A stretch of DNA of 47,514 bases, taken from a candidate division CPR3 bacterium 4484_211. GTDB taxonomy: Bacteria; Patescibacteriota; 4484-211. A model generated the notes under the pieces. It searched no databases. It was not told where the DNA came from and saw only the letters and a list, made by a program, of their open reading frames with translations. The DNA is taken from contig MZGJ01000005.1 of assembly GCA_002084955.1 (NCBI GenBank), positions 1 through 47,514 of the forward strand. Reading direction: 5' to 3'. The translations under genes were made by a program, and so were the position numbers. Positions 40,975 to 47,514 of this stretch are shown one piece after another; the first letter of the stretch is position 1, and every line of letters starts with the position of its first letter.

Positions 40975-41049
40975 ATAAAGAAAGGAAATTGGAATTAAGT
41001 AGGCAGAAAAGAGATATTCAGGCTGAATAGGGAATAAGGTAGGGAATAA

Positions 41050-41076
41050 GGTGACACCCTTTTTAAGGGTGTCACC
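41050..41076. repeat. REP-like hairpin GGTGACACCCTT-TTT-AAGGGTGTCACC
   Basis: 12-bp perfect stem; same family as 39095-39131. Confidence 0.9.
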
Positions 41077-41195
41077 CCTTTTATCCCTTCTATTACAATA
41101 AAATTTGACGTCCTTAATCTTAATTCACAGAAAGGAGAAAGAAGGGTTAGATAGTGGGCACACCTCTCTGGGGCACGACCTTTAAAATAAGTACC

Positions 41196-42161
41196 CTAAT
41201 CAGAGCTAACCAAGTCCTCTATTTTCTGCGGGAAATCCTCAACGGTATATGAAGGCAGGATGTAAATAATCTCTGACTGGTTGGTCTTAACAAAATAATC
41301 CTCGTTTTCATCCTGATTACCAATAGCCAATTCATAAAGACTGCCGTCTTTTAAATTTATGACATATTTCCACTGAGGATTATTCAATCCTGCCAGCTCC
41401 AGGTTGCCTTTCATCTGCAAGTCATTAGCCCTTAAACTAGAAAGAGTAGTAATAAAAGTTTGAATTTTCTTGGAGTCTAGACTCCCTTTGGCCGGCGATT
41501 CCTTAGAGCCAGGCTCTAAAGAATTCTCAAGAGCCTGGCTCTTTTCCTCGCCGGTTAGTTTCCATTCGCCATCCTTTTTCTCCAAAGTAAAACTATTGCC
41601 CTGATGCCAAACGGCAACCGAGCTAACATCATCGGCGACAAATTTTAACACCACCAGATTTCTCCACTCGGCCGTTGGCGAGAAGCCGGACAGCCACTCA
41701 GAAACCAAATAAACTCTGTCCTCACCTTCTTTCCGTATATAGGTGGTACCATATCCAGGCCCGGACTTGCCCAAATAATAGTCGGCAGTCAATGAATCAT
41801 CTCGGAACAGCCTAATTCTTATCCCAGATTCATCCACCTGCATATCCTTCTGCTTCTCTGGATTGGTGGAAATCAGCTCACTGCGGCTTAAACCGCCAGT
41901 TGTTTCCAGTAAATTGGCCACTTTCTGTTCATCCGCCAAAGCTTTTTCTTTTGTCTCAACCACCCACCGCGAATTTTCCTTTATCAGCTTGATTTCATCA
42001 TCTCCCTTTTTAACCTCAATCCGGTTAACTTCCTCCTTATTGAAGTGAGGGAAAAGCTTTGTTTCCCCACGCCCCCAGGGAAGACCACGGGTTAATAAGT
42101 AACCAATACCAATAAGAAAAACTAAAATAAAAAGAAGCAATATATTTTTATTCTTTAACAC
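41196..42161 (-). CDS. DUF4340 domain protein (Gld-type ABC operon accessory)
   Basis: N-terminal TM; two repeats of L.K....W...D..K(V/I) and GL..P; follows the GldG-like gene. Start taken as GTG 42161 (ORF open to 42194). Confidence 0.8.
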   Translation of the reverse strand: MLKNKNILLLFILVFLIGIGYLLTRGLPWGRGETKLFPHFNKEEVNRIEVKKGDDEIKLIKENSRWVVETKEKALADEQKVANLLETTGGLSRSELISTNPEKQKDMQVDESGIRIRLFRDDSLTADYYLGKSGPGYGTTYIRKEGEDRVYLVSEWLSGFSPTAEWRNLVVLKFVADDVSSVAVWHQGNSFTLEKKDGEWKLTGEEKSQALENSLEPGSKESPAKGSLDSKKIQTFITTLSSLRANDLQMKGNLELAGLNNPQWKYVINLKDGSLYELAIGNQDENEDYFVKTNQSEIIYILPSYTVEDFPQKIEDLVSSD

Positions 42162-42283
42162 AATAGGAGACGCAAAACGCAAAATCAAAACCACAGATTA
42201 AAACTAAAAAGCTTTAGATTGTGGTCTTTGCGTTTTCCACTTCAAGTTTTAAGATCCCATATCCTACCTATATCTTACCTTCA

Positions 42284-43840
42284 TCATTCAACCTTTGACC
42301 TTTTGTACATCCACACCACCCCGAACAAAATTAAGCCCAAAGCCGGGCCCAAAATATTGGCGTATTTTATCTGCAGTTTGAGCGGGTCTGAAACCGCCCT
42401 CAGCGGCCTAAAAGTTTGTCCCTTGGCCCTGATAGACGAAAGGGCACTTTCCGATGCCGCATAGTCCAGCATATTGGCAAAAAGATAAAAATTATTCTCA
42501 TCCCCCTGAATAAACCGATCGCTAATGAAATCAGCATCTCCTGCCACAAACAATTTAGCCGATTCCGCTTGCTCTTTATAGCCTTCTGCATCCACTTCTT
42601 CCGGAAGCGAATCCCGAGCAAAAGCACTTTTAATTTCCCCCTCAATTAAAGCTATTAAAATTTTTTCAGAAGCGTCATCGGGCACTTTAAACCTCTGGGT
42701 GGGATCAAGATTATAGGCATCACTCTGCACCCACGACCTGGGGCTGGATTTTACTAAGTCGGTAAATTCAACTCCGTCAGGAAACTTATCTTTTTCTACA
42801 TTTAAAGACGAAACCCACGGGAAAACAGCTGTTTCCAACTGCCTGGTTATCACCGAATTACTGCTTAGTCCCGCAGAGGTAATCCGCGGCCAAAAAGGAT
42901 AAGAAACAAAAAATGAGCTCTGACCGGTGTTAAAACTGGCAATTTCATTACTGGCATCCAAAACCAAGTTATGATTAACACTAACTCCATAGCTTTTTAG
43001 CCAATTAAAAACATTACTCTGGGCTTTCACCGCCTGCAGCCCCTGTTCTACCTTTACGCCGTCAATCAGAAAAAACACTGCTTTATTTTGCATAAGAAAC
43101 TGATCTACCAAATACCTTTCCTGATCAGAAAAATCTTTCTGCGGGCCAGCGATAATTAGAACACTCGTGCCGTCAGGCAGATCGTCCCCAGAAGTTAAGT
43201 CAACATCCTGCATTTGATACTGCTTCTGCAAAGCCCGGGAAACACTGCTTAGACCATTGGATAATGTTTTTTCTTCATGACCGGAAATAAAGACTACTTT
43301 TGGCTTTTCGGGGCGGGTTAAGTTGGCAATAGCCAAACTAATCTGGTATTCTAAATTACCGGTATCTTGAATAAAAGAAATTGTTTCATTTTTATCAGCA
43401 TAAAGAACAGCTAAACCAAAATACCCCTGAACCACCTCCAGTTTTTCCGACTGAATATCACTAAACTGCACCGGATAAATTCCTAAAGAATTGGCCGTCT
43501 GCATCGCCTCTGCATTGGTGCCGGGGTCAAAATACTGTACCTTTACCTTATTTCGCGCGGCATTTTGGTACTCCCACAGCAAGTCTTTTACCTGCTGGTA
43601 AACGGGGCTAAATCGCGCCGGCAGTTTCTTGGAAGCAAAAACCTTAATCGTCACCAGATCGTCAATATTTCTCACAATATCTTTGCTGGCCGGCGACAAA
43701 CTAAATCTTTTATTAGCCGTTAAATCTAAACGCAGGGGGAAGAGAGTAAGGATATAGTTGAGAGTAATAACTACACCGATAACCAGAGCCACATTGGCCA
43801 CTTCATTAAATTGTTGAACAAATACTTTCAATCTACGCAT
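42284..43840 (-). CDS. GldG family ABC transporter substrate-binding/auxiliary protein
   Basis: RLDLT.NKRFSLS..S, F.SGHEE, LIIAGP..D, GDADF, N..LF.N..DY, C-terminal TM. Confidence 0.88.
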   Translation of the reverse strand: MRRLKVFVQQFNEVANVALVIGVVITLNYILTLFPLRLDLTANKRFSLSPASKDIVRNIDDLVTIKVFASKKLPARFSPVYQQVKDLLWEYQNAARNKVKVQYFDPGTNAEAMQTANSLGIYPVQFSDIQSEKLEVVQGYFGLAVLYADKNETISFIQDTGNLEYQISLAIANLTRPEKPKVVFISGHEEKTLSNGLSSVSRALQKQYQMQDVDLTSGDDLPDGTSVLIIAGPQKDFSDQERYLVDQFLMQNKAVFFLIDGVKVEQGLQAVKAQSNVFNWLKSYGVSVNHNLVLDASNEIASFNTGQSSFFVSYPFWPRITSAGLSSNSVITRQLETAVFPWVSSLNVEKDKFPDGVEFTDLVKSSPRSWVQSDAYNLDPTQRFKVPDDASEKILIALIEGEIKSAFARDSLPEEVDAEGYKEQAESAKLFVAGDADFISDRFIQGDENNFYLFANMLDYAASESALSSIRAKGQTFRPLRAVSDPLKLQIKYANILGPALGLILFGVVWMYKRSKVE

Positions 43841-43900
43841 ATTCTTAGAACTTATTAACTGAATAACTGATTAACTTAATAACCGATTAACACCTAAATT

Positions 43901-44255
43901 GTTATTCCATCATTCCGTTATTCTGTTATTCCGTTGTTCTGTTATTCCGTTATTCTGTTATTCCGTTGTTCTGTTATTCTGTTATTCCGTTATTCTGTTA
44001 TTCCGTTATTCTGTTATTCCGTTGTTCTGTTATTCCGTTGTTCTGTTATTCCGTTATTCTGTTATTCTGTTATTCTGTTATTCCGTTGTTCTGTTATTCC
44101 GTTATTCTGTTATTCTGTTATTCTGTTATTCCGTTATTCTGTTATTCCGTTATTCTGTTATTCCGTTGTTCTGTTATTCTGTTGTTCTGTTATTCCGTTA
44201 TTCTGTTATTCTGTTATTCCGTTATTCTGTTATTCCGTTATTCTGTTATTCCGTT
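43901..44255. repeat. Tandem array of 44 8-bp units (GTTATTCC / GTTATTCT / GTTGTTCT)
   Basis: Parsed by hand in unbroken 8-bp register: 18 GTTATTCC, 18 GTTATTCT, 7 GTTGTTCT, 1 ATCATTCC. Confidence 0.97.
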
Positions 44256-44628
44256 TCTTTAACCTCGCATCTTTCCTAACTTTAGATGAGAAGGCAGATA
44301 ATTGCCTATTTAGGCCCTCTGCCCTTTTTAACCAATATCTGTGTTCTTCGTCCGTTATATATCCATCATCATGAGCAGCATCCAAACAAGCCACAACTTC
44401 GTCCAATGAGGTCAGTGATATGTTTAAAAATTTGCTAAACTCAAGATCTGAATACTTGGCTGATCCTTCAGCGATATTAAGTAGTATCGAATCTAGAGCA
44501 CGCCATAACTGATCAGTAAGACCAAACCGCTCATCCCTTGGGAACTTCTTTCTAGAAAACTCTTTCAGCTCCTTCCTAAGCTTTCTAATCTCTTTATAAA
44601 CTGGAAACTCTCTAAATCTAAAAATCAC
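44230..44628 (-). CDS. Four helix bundle protein (TIGR02436 / 23S rRNA IVS protein family, Avd-like fold)
   Basis: F.FREFPVY, FP.DERFGLTDQL.RA..SI.LNIAEG, F..FL.I...SL.E, D.GYI. Confidence 0.92.
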   Translation of the reverse strand: MIFRFREFPVYKEIRKLRKELKEFSRKKFPRDERFGLTDQLWRALDSILLNIAEGSAKYSDLEFSKFLNISLTSLDEVVACLDAAHDDGYITDEEHRYWLKRAEGLNRQLSAFSSKVRKDARLKKRNNRITE

Positions 44629-44638
44629 CCTATTAATC

Positions 44639-44720
44639 GTTATTCCGTTATTTTGTTACTCTGTCATTCTGTTATTCAGTTATTCTGTTATTCCGTTGTT
44701 CTGTTATTCAGTTATTCAGT
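44639..44720. repeat. Second, more degenerate array of 10 8-bp units (GTTATTCN)
   Basis: Same unit and orientation as 43901-44255; contains the stop codon of the permease gene. Confidence 0.93.
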
Positions 44721-45418
44721 CTTTTCCCTGTCAAATACAGAAGCACTCCGGTAAATGATACAAAATAAACAACATCCCTTAGGTCTATTATCCCCTTGGC
44801 CATGTTTTGGAAATGGGTCAGGAAACTGACAAATCTAAAAAGCGGCGCAATGACATCGGGAGTACGGTCAAGAAAAAAACTGGTCCCCGTCACATAAAGC
44901 AGGAAACCAATTACCGCCGTTAGGGAGAAGCTGACAATTTGATTGTCGCTTAAAGCAGAAACAAAAAGGCCCAAGCTAAGATATAAAGCTCCCAAAAGAA
45001 GCGAGGCCAGATAGCCGCCGACTATCGGGCCTGGCTCCGGATGACCCAAGGCCGCCAAAGTAAAGGGAACACTGCCCGTTAAAACCAAGGCCAAGATGAG
45101 AATTAAAAAACTGCCCACGAATTTTCCCAAAACGACCCTGCCACTGGTAAGAGGCAAAGTTAAAAGCACCTCCAAAGTTTTGGCTCGTTTTTCTTCGGCA
45201 AAAGAAGCCATACTCAAGGCCGGAATTAAAAATAAATAGACAACAACCAAGTTCTGGAAAAAATCGCGCATTTCCGCCTGATTTACCAAAAAGAAATTCT
45301 GGAAAAAAAGCCAGTTGACCAAAATTAAAAAAAGACCCACAGCTACATAGGCGGTAGGGGAGTAAAGGAAAAAAGCCAGTTCTTTTTTAACAATAGCAAT
45401 AAGAGATCTTTTCATCAT
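44708..45418 (-). CDS. ABC-2 permease, GldF-like
   Basis: KEL..F..SP.AY, PALSM..FAEEKR..TLE.LLTLP, GKF, SA...NQI, G.IDLRD..YF. Confidence 0.9.
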   Translation of the reverse strand: MMKRSLIAIVKKELAFFLYSPTAYVAVGLFLILVNWLFFQNFFLVNQAEMRDFFQNLVVVYLFLIPALSMASFAEEKRAKTLEVLLTLPLTSGRVVLGKFVGSFLILILALVLTGSVPFTLAALGHPEPGPIVGGYLASLLLGALYLSLGLFVSALSDNQIVSFSLTAVIGFLLYVTGTSFFLDRTPDVIAPLFRFVSFLTHFQNMAKGIIDLRDVVYFVSFTGVLLYLTGKRLNN

Positions 45419-45568
45419 GTATTTTTTTGAACGCTGAGTAACCCAATAACCAATCAACTTATTAACTTAACGGGGGCTAATTCGTCAAATATCAAATTAA
45501 AAATGCCAAACCAAATCCAAATGACAAATTTCAAACAAGGGCCAAATTACAATTTTTACAATCCTAAC

Positions 45569-45714
45569 CACGGGAAAATTTTGGTTACTTGAATTTTGAA
45601 TTTGCTTGTAATTTGGTACTTGGTTCTTGTCATCATAACTAGAACATAATGCTGCACTTTGTCTGTAATAGCAGACTCCTGCCGTGTACCGAATGAGACT
45701 GCGGTCAATCTGCG
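45569..45714 (-). repeat. Composite dispersed element, copy 3 (inverted)
   Basis: Reverse complement aligns with 29470-29585; carries the GCCGTGTACC module at 45681-45714. Confidence 0.8.
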
Positions 45715-45755
45715 TTGAATAAATTTGTAATATATTCAGTTACTCCGTTACTCAG

Positions 45756-46463
45756 TCATTCCGTTGGCAGAGTCAATTCTCTAAACACCTCCTCCAGTGT
45801 TTTATCCGCATCCGTAGTTAGTTCCCGCAAATTTCCCTGCCCAACAATTTTCCCGTGACTGATAATAATCACCCGATTGCAGGTGAGCTCAACTTCGGAA
45901 AGGATATGAGTAGATAGAATAACCGTTTTTTCTTTGCCCAATTCTTTAATTAGCTCTCTAATTTCCACAATTTGATTAGGATCTAGACCGGAAGTGGGTT
46001 CATCCATAATAAGAACCGGGGGCTTGTGAAGCATCGCCGCCGCCAACCCCACCCGTTGACGATAACCTTTGGAAAGTTTTTGGATTTCCTTTTTAAGCAC
46101 CTCCTGAATGCCACAAACTTCTATCATCTCCTCCACCTGACTCTGATCGGTTATACCTCGCACTTCGGCAATAAAGCGCAGATATTCGCGGACTTTTAGA
46201 AAATGATAAAGAGGATTATCCTCCGGCAAATAGCCAATTCGGCGCTTAACTTCTACGGGAGATTCGCCAACCTTTAACCCGTCAACAATAATCTGCCCCT
46301 CGTCTGCCGGGAAAAATCCGGTAATCAGGCGCATGGTAGTAGTCTTGCCGGCGCCGTTGGGACCAAGAAAGCCCAAAATCTCACCGGCTTTTACTTCAAA
46401 GGAGACATCTTCCACCGCCGCTTTCAATCCGAATCTTTTGGTTACGTTCTTCAACTCAATCAT
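45756..46463 (-). CDS. ABC transporter ATP-binding protein, GldA-like
   Basis: GPNGAGKTT, GYLPE.NPLY, LSKGYRQRVGLA, DEPTSGLDPNQ, STHIL.EV. Confidence 0.93.
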   Translation of the reverse strand: MIELKNVTKRFGLKAAVEDVSFEVKAGEILGFLGPNGAGKTTTMRLITGFFPADEGQIIVDGLKVGESPVEVKRRIGYLPEDNPLYHFLKVREYLRFIAEVRGITDQSQVEEMIEVCGIQEVLKKEIQKLSKGYRQRVGLAAAMLHKPPVLIMDEPTSGLDPNQIVEIRELIKELGKEKTVILSTHILSEVELTCNRVIIISHGKIVGQGNLRELTTDADKTLEEVFRELTLPTE

Positions 46464-46537
46464 AAGCTGTTAAACAGTCTACCAATGAGGCATCACTTTT
46501 TCAAGTCTTACAAACATGTTAAAATAGTGTTGTTAAA

Positions 46538-46628
46538 GACGGGTCGGTAAATGCCAACCCGGTTGTAATTACAATAACCAAGCGCCAAATTACAAACAAA
46601 TTCTAAATCCAAAATCCAAATAATCAAA
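46538..46628 (+). repeat. Dispersed element, copy 4
   Basis: 64/68 identity of 46561-46628 to 9584-9651; about 25 bp upstream also similar. Confidence 0.85.
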
Positions 46629-46713
46629 GCTTGCCCGTATTTAGAATTCGGAAATTGTCATTTGGACATTGTTTGAAATCAACCACAGGGAGAAGATAGC
46701 TTAAAGATAACTT

Positions 46714-46803
46714 GCCGAAGTGGCGGAATTGGTAGACGCGCAACGTTGAGGTCGTTGTCCCCATTGAATGGGGGTGGAGGTTCAAGTCCTCTCTTCGGCA
46801 CCA
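46714..46803 (+). tRNA. tRNA-Leu(GAG)
   Basis: GCCGAAGTGGCGGAATTGGTAGACGCG, CAACG-TT-GAG-GT-CGTTG, long variable arm, A-CCA. Confidence 0.95.
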
Positions 46804-46809
46804 AGCACT

Positions 46810-46886
46810 CGGGGATTGGCGCAGTTGGCTAGCGCGCCACGTTTGGGACGTGGAGGCCGTCGGTTCAAGTCCGACATCCCCGACCA
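46810..46886 (+). tRNA. tRNA-Pro(TGG)
   Basis: CGGGGATTGGCGCAG...CCACG-TT-TGG-GA-CGTGG...GGTTCAAGTCC...A-CCA. Confidence 0.95.
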
Positions 46887-47157
46887 GCGACTCACCGCCC
46901 TCCTGACAGCAGAGAGAGAAAAATCCTTCCCCCAAGCTTCTTTTTTGCCCACCTGCTTGGCGACAACACAATTTTTTTGGCAGGCGGCGAGACCGACATG
47001 TTCATAGTCGCCCCCACTCCACCTATATGCGAGGGCGACAAAAGGAAACCCCCTTGATGCTTTTTCTTTACTTTTTCTGGGTAATTAGTTATCATTATGG
47101 TAGAAAAATAAGAAAGTTTAGAATATAATCTATACATTTTAATATTAAACAATAACT

Positions 47158-47364
47158 ATGCAGATGTCAAATAAAATATCTGATAATCTAAAAAAATTAA
47201 GAGCTAAAAAAGGCTATTCTCTCGAAAAAGTAGCTCGACTTGCTGATCTTTCATTAAATACCGTTGTAAAAATTGAGAATGGAGTAAATAAAAACCCTAC
47301 TTTTGAAACTATAACTAAACTTGCGAAAGCGTTAGATGTGCCGATTGATGATTTGATTAAATAA
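47158..47364 (+). CDS. XRE-family helix-turn-helix regulator
   Basis: NLKKLR..KGYS.E..A..A.LS..T..KIE.G..NPT.ET..KLA.AL.V. Confidence 0.9.
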   Translation: MQMSNKISDNLKKLRAKKGYSLEKVARLADLSLNTVVKIENGVNKNPTFETITKLAKALDVPIDDLIK

Positions 47365-47366
47365 CT

Positions 47367-47514
47367 ATGCAAAATTTTCAACCAATAACAAAAAAATTAT
47401 TTCCTCCTGACTATCAGTTAATTGATGGAACTGATGAAATTTTTGAGTTAAATTTTGCTCTTTGGGAATATGAAAATCTTAATAAAAAAGATTTAATTAG
47501 GCGCAGTGCCTACT
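47367..47514 (+). CDS. Partial ORF truncated by the window end, function unknown
   Basis: ATG 2 nt after the XRE stop; MQNFQPITKKLFPPDYQLIDGTDEIFELNFALWEYENLNKKDLIRRSAY stays open to the end; AT-rich. Confidence 0.7.
   Translation, partial: MQNFQPITKKLFPPDYQLIDGTDEIFELNFALWEYENLNKKDLIRRSAY

Follow-up and report, generated by a model that had tools for sequence, protein, structure and literature searches.

A Four-Helix-Bundle Gene between Short Tandem-Repeat Arms in a gld-Like Operon of a CPR Bacterium: A Probable Insertion Cassette of the Intervening-Sequence Type

The gldF–gldG Junction and Its Repeat Arrays

The stretch of DNA analysed here, 47,514 nucleotides in length and hereinafter called the window, is contig MZGJ01000005.1 (assembly GCA_002084955.1) of the candidate division CPR3 bacterium 4484_211, i.e., contig C37 of an 826-kb genome (G000) in 39 contigs with 44% GC, representing an organism of the Candidate Phyla Radiation (CPR)/Patescibacteria type. 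On its minus strand, the window carries an operon with the gene order gldA-like, gldF-like, four-helix-bundle (4HB) gene, gldG-like, DUF4340. The 4HB gene (44230..44628, minus strand; 132 aa, GTG start) is assigned by matches of hidden Markov models to PF05635/TIGR02436 (“S23p”, the protein of 23S rRNA intervening sequences) and is enclosed by arrays of a short tandem repeat, the octamer RGAAYAAC. This element, the gene together with its arrays, is the subject of the present report. Its place between the gldF-like and gldG-like genes, on the same strand, had been given in a preliminary description of this DNA and was confirmed.

Read along the coding strand, the element is laid out as an arm, the 4HB gene, an extra direct array and an inverted arm. 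The 5' arm (44629..44722, minus strand) comprises 10 octamer units of RGAAYAAC and its TGAATAAC variants (Tandem Repeats Finder, TRF: 44639-44717, period 8, 9.9 copies, 80% matches); four of the units are exact, six are one-base variants such as TGAATAAC, and the arm stops 10 bases ahead of the 4HB start codon. The extra direct array (43900..44255, minus strand; TRF score 530, 92% matches) consists of 44 in-phase octamers, 43 exact and one degenerate, mostly GGAATAAC alternating with AGAATAAC or AGAACAAC; its period is 8, or 16 if read as a two-unit repeat. The 3' inverted arm (43849..43892, minus strand) holds about five reverse-complement units (GTTATTCA or GTTAATCR; TRF 43849-43891; inverted-repeat pairs I1-I4) and stops 9 bases ahead of the gldG start codon. 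Overall, the window contains 54 copies of RGAAYAAC against 6.4 +/- 2.5 expected, a figure reached in none of 100 shuffles. The exact matches include 43 in a single phase in 43901-44252 and four in 44639-44702. A mini-array of about three octamer units of the same type (45739..45762, minus strand; TRF period 8, 3.4 copies) covers the stop codon of the gldA-like gene, which falls at array offset +4. Neither this mini-array nor the inverted arm was noticed in the preliminary description.

The arrays reach into the adjoining genes. The C-terminus of the gldF-like product (...GKRLNN*) takes its LNN codons and stop from the units of the 5' arm, and that of the 4HB protein (...RNNRITE*) takes its last seven codons and stop from the long array, ending within unit three. 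Thus, 10 upstream and 44 downstream octamers supplying the stops of both genes were found as previously described, with the number 44 coming from the original assembly. Since a period of this length is not divisible by three, and TAA is present in the units and TGA across their borders, every reading frame would be closed within about three units. Hence, the adjoining genes would keep near-native ends, and arrays could sit on gene ends without extending them. GldF proteins of two genomes of the same family end at nearly the same position (...LYLTSKKIE* and ...LIYFNVERSK*), so the array has replaced the extreme C-terminus only. At the same time, the long array spawns three overlapping spurious ORFs (open reading frames) of 98-146 codons on the plus strand (43899-44374; e.g., 43899-44279), which have a high content of L, F, S, V and C and might be called as genes by annotation software. 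For annotation, this means that array units can provide the real stop codons of adjoining genes and that long arrays yield spurious ORFs.

The outer arms are complementary to one another: 44654-44720 matches 43849-43892 at 77-83% over 35-44 nt, with a duplex energy of -33 kcal/mol vs. -12.5 +/- 3.4 kcal/mol for shuffled partners. In the predicted fold of the 891-nt element, the inverted arm has two partners: its 3' half binds the initial part of the 5' arm, closing the cassette, and its 5' half binds the long array. The spacer downstream of the 4HB gene folds by itself at -32.5 kcal/mol (z -4.1). Within 200 bases of the gene, the two flanks share 20 six-mers in direct and one in inverted orientation; the inverted match appears only past the long array, where 14 six-mers are shared with a 420-nt downstream stretch.

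The 4HB Protein

The assignment of the protein is robust: PF05635 is matched with E 7.6e-26 and 90.9 bits (cut-off 33.8) over positions 2-105 of 106, and TIGR02436 with E 1.7e-23 and 82.9 bits (cut-off 24). The structure predicted by AlphaFold (mean confidence, pLDDT, 97.5) displays four long helices. In a Foldseek comparison, this model was closest to 2GSC (TM-score 0.81/0.91, root-mean-square deviation 1.4), which is also matched at the sequence level (E 2.9e-10), and then to 2RLD (TM-score about 0.7/0.8). More distant is Avd, the accessory protein of diversity-generating retroelements (DGRs): the model resembles 4DWL with a TM-score of 0.72/0.87 and a root-mean-square deviation of 1.8 at 10% identity, which bears out the earlier statement that the two proteins share a fold.

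The protein is basic, with an isoelectric point of 9.5; the median for proteins of the class to which it belongs (see below) is 9.3, and 41 of 44 lie above 8. In eight close pairs of cassette proteins, dN/dS amounted to about 0.1-0.3, with synonymous sites at or near saturation. These substitution rates indicate that purifying selection acts on the 4HB family within the CPR sample. For the Xanthomonas member of the S23p family, a homopentameric state is given in PMC4990558.

The genome of the window contains five PF05635 matches, four of them over the cut-off, and only one 4HB gene of the clade of the window. In a control set, the family was also matched in Bacteroides thetaiotaomicron. The weak match (24 bits, under the cut-off) is a 192-aa ORF (G000:C23:30229-30807, L005) directly after an ORF of 3587 aa; it holds a short 9-base tandem repeat (TAAGTAACT, about three copies).

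Insertion into the Operon

In the genomes of relatives, the junction occupied by the element is tight. In G002, a genome of the same family with a GldG 55% identical to that of the window, the gldA-F-G-DUF4340 block is kept, with only 2 bases separating the stop of gldF from the start of gldG. Across 65 metagenome gldF-gldG loci, the estimated gap was 24 bases in the median and at most 169 bases, and none of the 65 contained a 4HB gene. Hence, the gene plus its arrays is an insertion rather than a component of the operon, a conclusion established by comparison at the sequence level. The search of metagenome contigs with GldF returned no relative above 48% (none of the same species), and a search of the genome contigs with the 4HB protein gave one distant locus only.

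Other members of the operon family were invaded elsewhere. In G001, which likewise belongs to this family, a PF05635 gene from a different clade (E 7.5e-11) with inverted arms of AATGACA-type heptamers lies between gldA and gldF, and the gldF-gldG gap of 139 bases harbors a heptamer hairpin without a gene; in G057, a 4HB gene is situated ahead of gldF. The differing places of these insertions show that the same operon was independently invaded at different junctions in different lineages.

A Class of Repeat-Armed Cassettes in Patescibacteria

Homologs of the 4HB protein were matched in 103 of 401 sampled genomes of Patescibacteria. For the flank comparison, 29 loci from the homolog search and 20 taken by coordinates were considered; after two loci without a tblastn match, one with a run of N and one without a stop in the locus were dropped, 45 cassettes remained. 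The upstream flank and the reverse-complemented downstream flank of the same cassette shared a median of 15 six-mers vs. 8 for mismatched pairs. In 19 of 45 cassettes, the inverted sharing lay beyond the 95th percentile of the mismatched pairs, and the observed mean was reached by none of 2000 permutations. Direct sharing exceeded its own 95th percentile in 3 of 45, about the chance level, and these three cases were traced to near-palindromic units or a duplicated tRNA end.

The repeats around the homologs have a characteristic period: the best local period was 7 in 19 cassettes, 8 in seven and another value in two, with 17 under the threshold. Control stretches at least 300 bases away showed no period in 41 of 44 cases and period 7 in the other three. 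The aligned arms had a median length of 31 nt; RNAduplex run on 200- or 300-nt flanks did not delimit the arm ends, since the pairing was spread over the entire input. Overall, the 4HB gene of this phylum is normally accompanied by inverted arms made up of four to five units of 7 or 8 bases. The element of the window belongs to this class, with inverted arms of 7-/8-base units at a gene junction plus an extra direct array, and is an unusual variant of it: its unit is of 8 bases instead of the usual 7, and a long direct array is interposed. The picture of a gene bracketed by direct arrays, as drawn in the preliminary description, therefore holds for the arrays themselves, both of which are present, and fails as a rule, since the inverted arm at 43849-43892 was missed and the class is defined by inverted (19/45), not direct (3/45), flanks.

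Two cassettes of the class, L031 (G069:C1:772703-776059) and L051 (G015:C1:24492-27767), have heptamer inverted arms and are embedded close to the 5' end of 16S rRNA genes, whose sequence resumes immediately beyond either arm; the encoded proteins share 43% and 40% identity with that of the window. These two loci tie the class to the published rRNA insertions and to the Coxiella intervening sequence (see below). In the literature covered, mostly open-access main texts, there was no description of a 4HB gene between tandem-repeat arms outside rRNA, between the genes of protein-coding operons. In the nearest relative, the cassette L033 (G002:C25:3387-5470) adjoins a tRNA gene and is flanked by a direct duplication of about 45 bases including the first bases of the tRNA, which, by its sequence, looks like a target duplication or integration at a tRNA end.

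The unit of the arms follows the protein only in part. The closest homolog of the window protein (G111; 58% identity, another family) is preceded by 11 octamers, the commonest being GGAAGAAC and TTAAGAAC, which are one to three bases from GGAATAAC; they start in the last codons of ruvA, supplying also the stop of this gene, and there is a downstream inverted arm. In the same genome, a direct array of this octamer unit is found without the gene immediately after a putative tRNA gene (L184, G111:C13:10500-12700). Among 47 cassettes, protein similarity was not correlated with arm similarity, either in a Mantel test on exact 6-mers (rank r -0.02, as high in 1174 of 2000 permutations) or with mismatches tolerated (r 0.066, as high in 276 of 2000). 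Arm similarity over the overall 95th percentile was found in 36% of the 11 pairs with at least 55% identity (three same-site pairs excluded), in 12% of those at 45-55% and in 3-5% of those below 45%. The claim that the repeat unit tracks the protein clade is thus upheld among relatives of at least 55% identity and lost over the whole range. Gene and arms travel together over short distances, an association in which common descent and recognition are not separable by this kind of comparison.

Comparison with Known Systems

The nearest known counterpart is the intervening sequence (IVS) of rRNA genes. As described in PMC4990558, which cites the Leptospira IVS alongside, the Coxiella burnetii IVS occupies helix 45 of 23S rRNA and carries an S23p ORF after a variable number of tandem heptamers (GACAGAT), in a stem cut by RNase III; rRNA insertions with a PF05635 ORF have also been published for CPR bacteria (PMC11270868). 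In both the IVS and the window, an S23p/PF05635 ORF lies in a loop between terminal inverted repeats, the insertion affects a transcribed, essential unit, and short tandem repeats stand directly upstream of the ORF; the arms of the window can likewise close a stem around the 4HB gene. Unlike the IVS, the window cassette resides between two protein-coding genes and not in an rRNA helix, its arms are entire arrays of 8-base units instead of a near-perfect 28-bp stem, and a 44-unit direct array is interposed; cutting by RNase III is, for the window, a matter of analogy. The Coxiella ORF is decaying, whereas the 4HB family in the CPR sample is maintained by purifying selection, as noted above.

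The resemblance of PF05635 to Avd was pointed out in a survey of DGRs (PMC10053308). Avd (4DWL; ribonucleoprotein structures 8UB7/8UBE) has in common with the protein of the window its four-helix-bundle fold and basic charge; it differs in that the identity is 10%, the Avd model scores under its cut-off, and neither a reverse transcriptase nor template/variable repeats were found in the genome.

As regards the repeats, the short tandemly repeated repetitive (STRR) sequences of cyanobacteria are comparable short tandem intergenic repeats. Intergenic arrays of the heptamer TAACTGA have been reported in Beggiatoaceae, Cyanobacteria and Bacteroidetes (MacGregor 2015, PMC4679880). Like the arrays of the window, these are A/T-rich, short direct tandem units located between genes, in up to tens of copies, and tight to coding regions; moreover, the TGAATAAC variant units hold TAACTGA over the unit border. 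They differ in their period (7 vs. 8) and in mostly abutting gene starts, whereas the window arrays abut the stop of the upstream gene. In the accessible text of PMC4679880, the terms “intervening sequence”, “helix bundle” and “S23” have zero occurrences. By analogy only, one may also think of the REP/RAYT system (repetitive extragenic palindromes and REP-associated tyrosine transposases), where one protein gene is flanked by inverted repeat copies and the repeat is also frequent without the gene; unlike RAYTs, the 4HB protein is not known to carry a catalytic motif; its repeats are tandem arrays vs. single palindromes, and no sign of transposition was seen.

Arrays without the Gene

The RGAAYAAC-type unit forms six arrays in the genome, each on the coding strand of the upstream gene, whose stop falls, relative to the beginning of the array, at offset -12 to +20. 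One of these arrays (G000:C9:20562-20942), a twin of the element without the gene, lies between the genes of FtsX and an M23/PcsB-like protein in the FtsEX operon; it comprises 31 units in forward and 15 in inverted orientation, with a folding energy of -88.5 kcal/mol (z -7.2). Loss of the 4HB gene by recombination of the two direct arrays of the window would leave just such an array plus inverted array.

A paralog of the cassette, G000:C9:6695-7087 (L002, L188), encodes a protein 25% identical to that of the window and is lodged between the ATPase and the MacB-type permease of an ABC operon. Its units are TTGTTAA-type heptamers, in the order arm, gene, short direct arm, inverted arm. The 4HB cassettes on C29 and C24 have arm units of the CAAAT type. 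Thus, two of the four 4HB cassettes of the genome, as well as the twin without the gene, sit in ABC-type operons. Heptamer arrays of AATTCAG/TGAATTC occur in at least seven places (C18:27285, C1:16796, C3:18769, C33:6387, C27:19218, C30:72, C16:2404); the assembly contains no 4HB gene that belongs to them.

Overall, 57 of 491 intergenic gaps, as delimited by crude ORF calling, hold arrays of at least three units of 6-9 bases. Short-period arrays near gene ends were in modest excess genome-wide, with 17 at stops vs. 12.1 expected and 20 at starts vs. 10.5, the latter figure being inflated by the crude ORF caller. Of the 401 genomes, 16 have arrays of at least four similar units, which were absent from all 12 nearest relatives; the same pattern read backwards was found in nine genomes, so the unit is not special phylum-wide, and only the present genome is rich in it. 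Of 26 similar array loci outside this genome, two have a 4HB gene within 1.5 kb. Specificity of the arrays to the cassette, which had been implied, is therefore contradicted by the existence of six arrays of the unit with one 4HB gene of the clade and by this low proportion outside.

Origin and Possible Function of the Element

In our opinion, the element is probably an IVS-like insertion cassette, i.e., a basic 4HB gene enclosed by reverse-complementary arms of short tandem repeats, which entered the gldF-gldG junction. The whole cassette would be co-transcribed with the operon, and its arms would pair in the RNA to form a periodically mismatched stem around the 4HB message. On the analogy with the rRNA IVS, this stem may be cut by RNase III, whose gene is present in the genome (G000:C29:14559-14954, E 3.2e-38), so that the operon transcript would be split and the 4HB mRNA freed. 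The long direct array may owe its existence to slippage or to recombination with a further array built of this unit, and recombination between both direct arrays could delete the 4HB gene, leaving a hairpin like that between ftsX and the M23 peptidase gene.

If the arms are indeed RNase III substrates, such cassettes would represent a so far hidden level at which the operon transcripts of streamlined genomes are processed. PF05635/TIGR02436 is a large family with solved structures and no assigned function, and intergenic 7-/8-base repeats have been noted for decades without explanation. The locus links this orphan protein family to the repeats, combining one gene, one unit, a twin without the gene and empty junctions in relatives.

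Several observations weigh against this interpretation. As most arrays are without a 4HB gene, it may be the arrays that are primary. Any array of the RGAAYAAC-type unit finds its complement in the 3' arm; hence, the locus is equally readable as two trailing arrays, one after gldF and the other, a hairpin, after the 4HB gene. The flank duplex energies of the five PF05635 matches of the genome rank only 150, 169, 194, 273 and 300 of 326 genes, which is attributable to the dispersed palindromic repeats that fill many spacers. Mismatches of the G-U kind, an excess of which on the sense strand would point to pairing in the RNA, number 23 sense vs. 17 antisense in the 12 best-aligned of 44 cassettes, a difference without significance (p 0.43), and transversion mismatches (68) are commoner. 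Few members of the class have a layout that includes a long direct array (as judged by eye, the window, G000:C9:6695-7087 and L038), and the 356-base array of the window is spanned by no public contig, the figure of 44 units being that of the original assembly only.

Among the alternatives, the one closest to the preliminary description is a transposase-less unit whose gain and loss proceed through homologous recombination of direct arrays with one common unit: a circle carrying the gene and an array would integrate into any array of that unit, and excision would leave behind an array without the gene. The arm-gene-arm direct layout is the expected leftover of such an integration. It is in line with the arrays without the gene in the same genome, one of them also forward-plus-inverted, with the gene-free array of the cassette unit beside a putative tRNA gene in G111, and with the equal order of arm, gene, arm and inverted arm built from a different unit in the paralog G000:C9:6695-7087. 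On the other hand, direct flanks are exceptional in the class, each of the three cases being explained otherwise; no joined form was seen, though the contigs could hardly reveal one; and the unit variants differ between the two sides (TGAATAAC upstream only), which argues that any exchange was not recent. As the whole explanation, this mechanism seems possible but less probable; it is compatible with the IVS-like cassette as its mobility step. Of the earlier proposal, the gain of the cassette is substantiated by the insertion itself, and recombination through arrays is suggested by the twin at G000:C9:20562-20942. It is harder to regard the arrays as simple sequence born by slippage after stop codons, with the 4HB gene landing between two of them and no functional tie. 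The frequency of short-period arrays in intergenic gaps, the six arrays of the RGAAYAAC-type unit trailing stops, five of them without their own 4HB gene, and the published heptamer arrays without such a gene (PMC4679880) would fit. Still, a locus-specific inverted match of the flanks (19 of 45 cassettes, none of 2000 permutations) cannot come from unrelated arrays, and cassettes within 16S rRNA genes (L031, L051) have the same arms, making this explanation improbable.

The protein could also act in its own right, by binding specifically to the unit of its own arms, as RNA or DNA, and operating in trans on all arrays of that unit, much as a RAYT transposase operates on REP elements, or tuning the expression of the neighbors. 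This idea draws on the sharing of arm units far above chance by pairs of at least 55% identity at which synonymous sites are saturated, on the recurrence of three unit types of the cassettes of this genome in arrays without the gene, and on the basic character of the proteins, whose fold is that of Avd, found in a ribonucleoprotein that holds nucleic acid (8UB7/8UBE). The lack of an overall relation between protein and arm similarity, the fact that common descent of gene and arms explains the sharing in close pairs equally well, and the array families without a 4HB partner (AATTCAG, at least seven places) render it rather unlikely. If the protein does read its own repeat, a new kind of repeat-protein pair would be at hand. 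An extension of this idea, which we consider doubtful, envisages the protein as the trans-acting partner of a two-part selfish system, with cassettes as “autonomous” elements and, as “non-autonomous” ones, same-unit arrays or hairpins that lack the gene and follow stop codons throughout the genome; the probably pentameric protein would recognize about five of its own units. With similarly low likelihood, it would promote copying, recombination or RNA processing of the units, the arm-gene-arm layout being a footprint of array-to-array recombination. If true, such a system would account for both the orphan family and the excess of 7-/8-base tandem repeats in bacterial genomes. Least credible by far, and close to being dismissed, is the role of an Avd accessory factor of a DGR. 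Apart from the shared fold, it has in its favor the Avd model NF033474, which matches weakly (E 3.3e-4) and scores 20.9 bits vs. a cut-off of 80; the genome, rated 99.85% complete, has no match to the reverse transcriptase model RVT_1 (PF00078), no pair of template and variable repeats was seen, and PADLOC returned no match. With no reverse transcriptase and the Avd score under the cut-off, a DGR role was excluded as far as the assembly reaches.

Assembly Support

The window was checked against the public contigs of a sequencing run containing 86% of its sampled words. All four borders between arrays and unique sequence are confirmed by contigs ending in the arrays (43310-43941, 44226-44573, 44680-45296). 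The interior of the long array is covered by pieces of 45-96 bases only, with raised depth. The contigs of the run revealed no joint, insertion or deletion, and a joined or excised form was not seen in them, though they could hardly reveal one. In the runs X2 and X3, of other metagenomes, contigs match gldG at 98-99% and diverge from the window at 43813 (gldG codon 10); in the run X5, one 151-base contig departs from the long array after about eight units (44186). These divergent contigs may stem from related strains with another junction or a shorter array.

Neighboring Genes and Spacers

The first gene of the operon (45756..46463, minus strand) encodes a gldA-like ABC ATPase (PF00005, E 1.5e-32). 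It is followed by the gene of a gldF-like ABC-2 permease (44708..45457, minus strand; PF12679, PF12698) and, past the 4HB gene, by its downstream neighbor, a gldG-like accessory gene (42284..43840, minus strand; PF09822, E 9.9e-58; DUF7088). The DUF4340 gene (41196..42194, minus strand; PF14238, E 8.5e-34) closes the conserved gldA-F-G-DUF4340 block, whose order is the same in relatives. The scores of the NCBIfam equivalog models lie under their cut-offs, at 315 vs. 402.6 for TIGR03522 (gldA-like), 165 vs. 288.5 for TIGR03518 (gldF-like) and 202 vs. 389.9 bits for TIGR03521 (gldG-like). Hence, the neighbors are named gld-like, as relatives of the gliding-motility transporter and not its members.

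A search of 41000-47514 with Rfam revealed two tRNAs and nothing else, and a promoter/terminator scan of 43700-45800 gave one promoter-like and one terminator-like site, without excess over shuffles. The gldA-gldF spacer (45458-45755, 298 bases) folds no better than shuffles (z -0.8). It harbors a AAATGACAAAT-type motif, which is present as a 25-base tandem unit at about 10 other sites of the genome.

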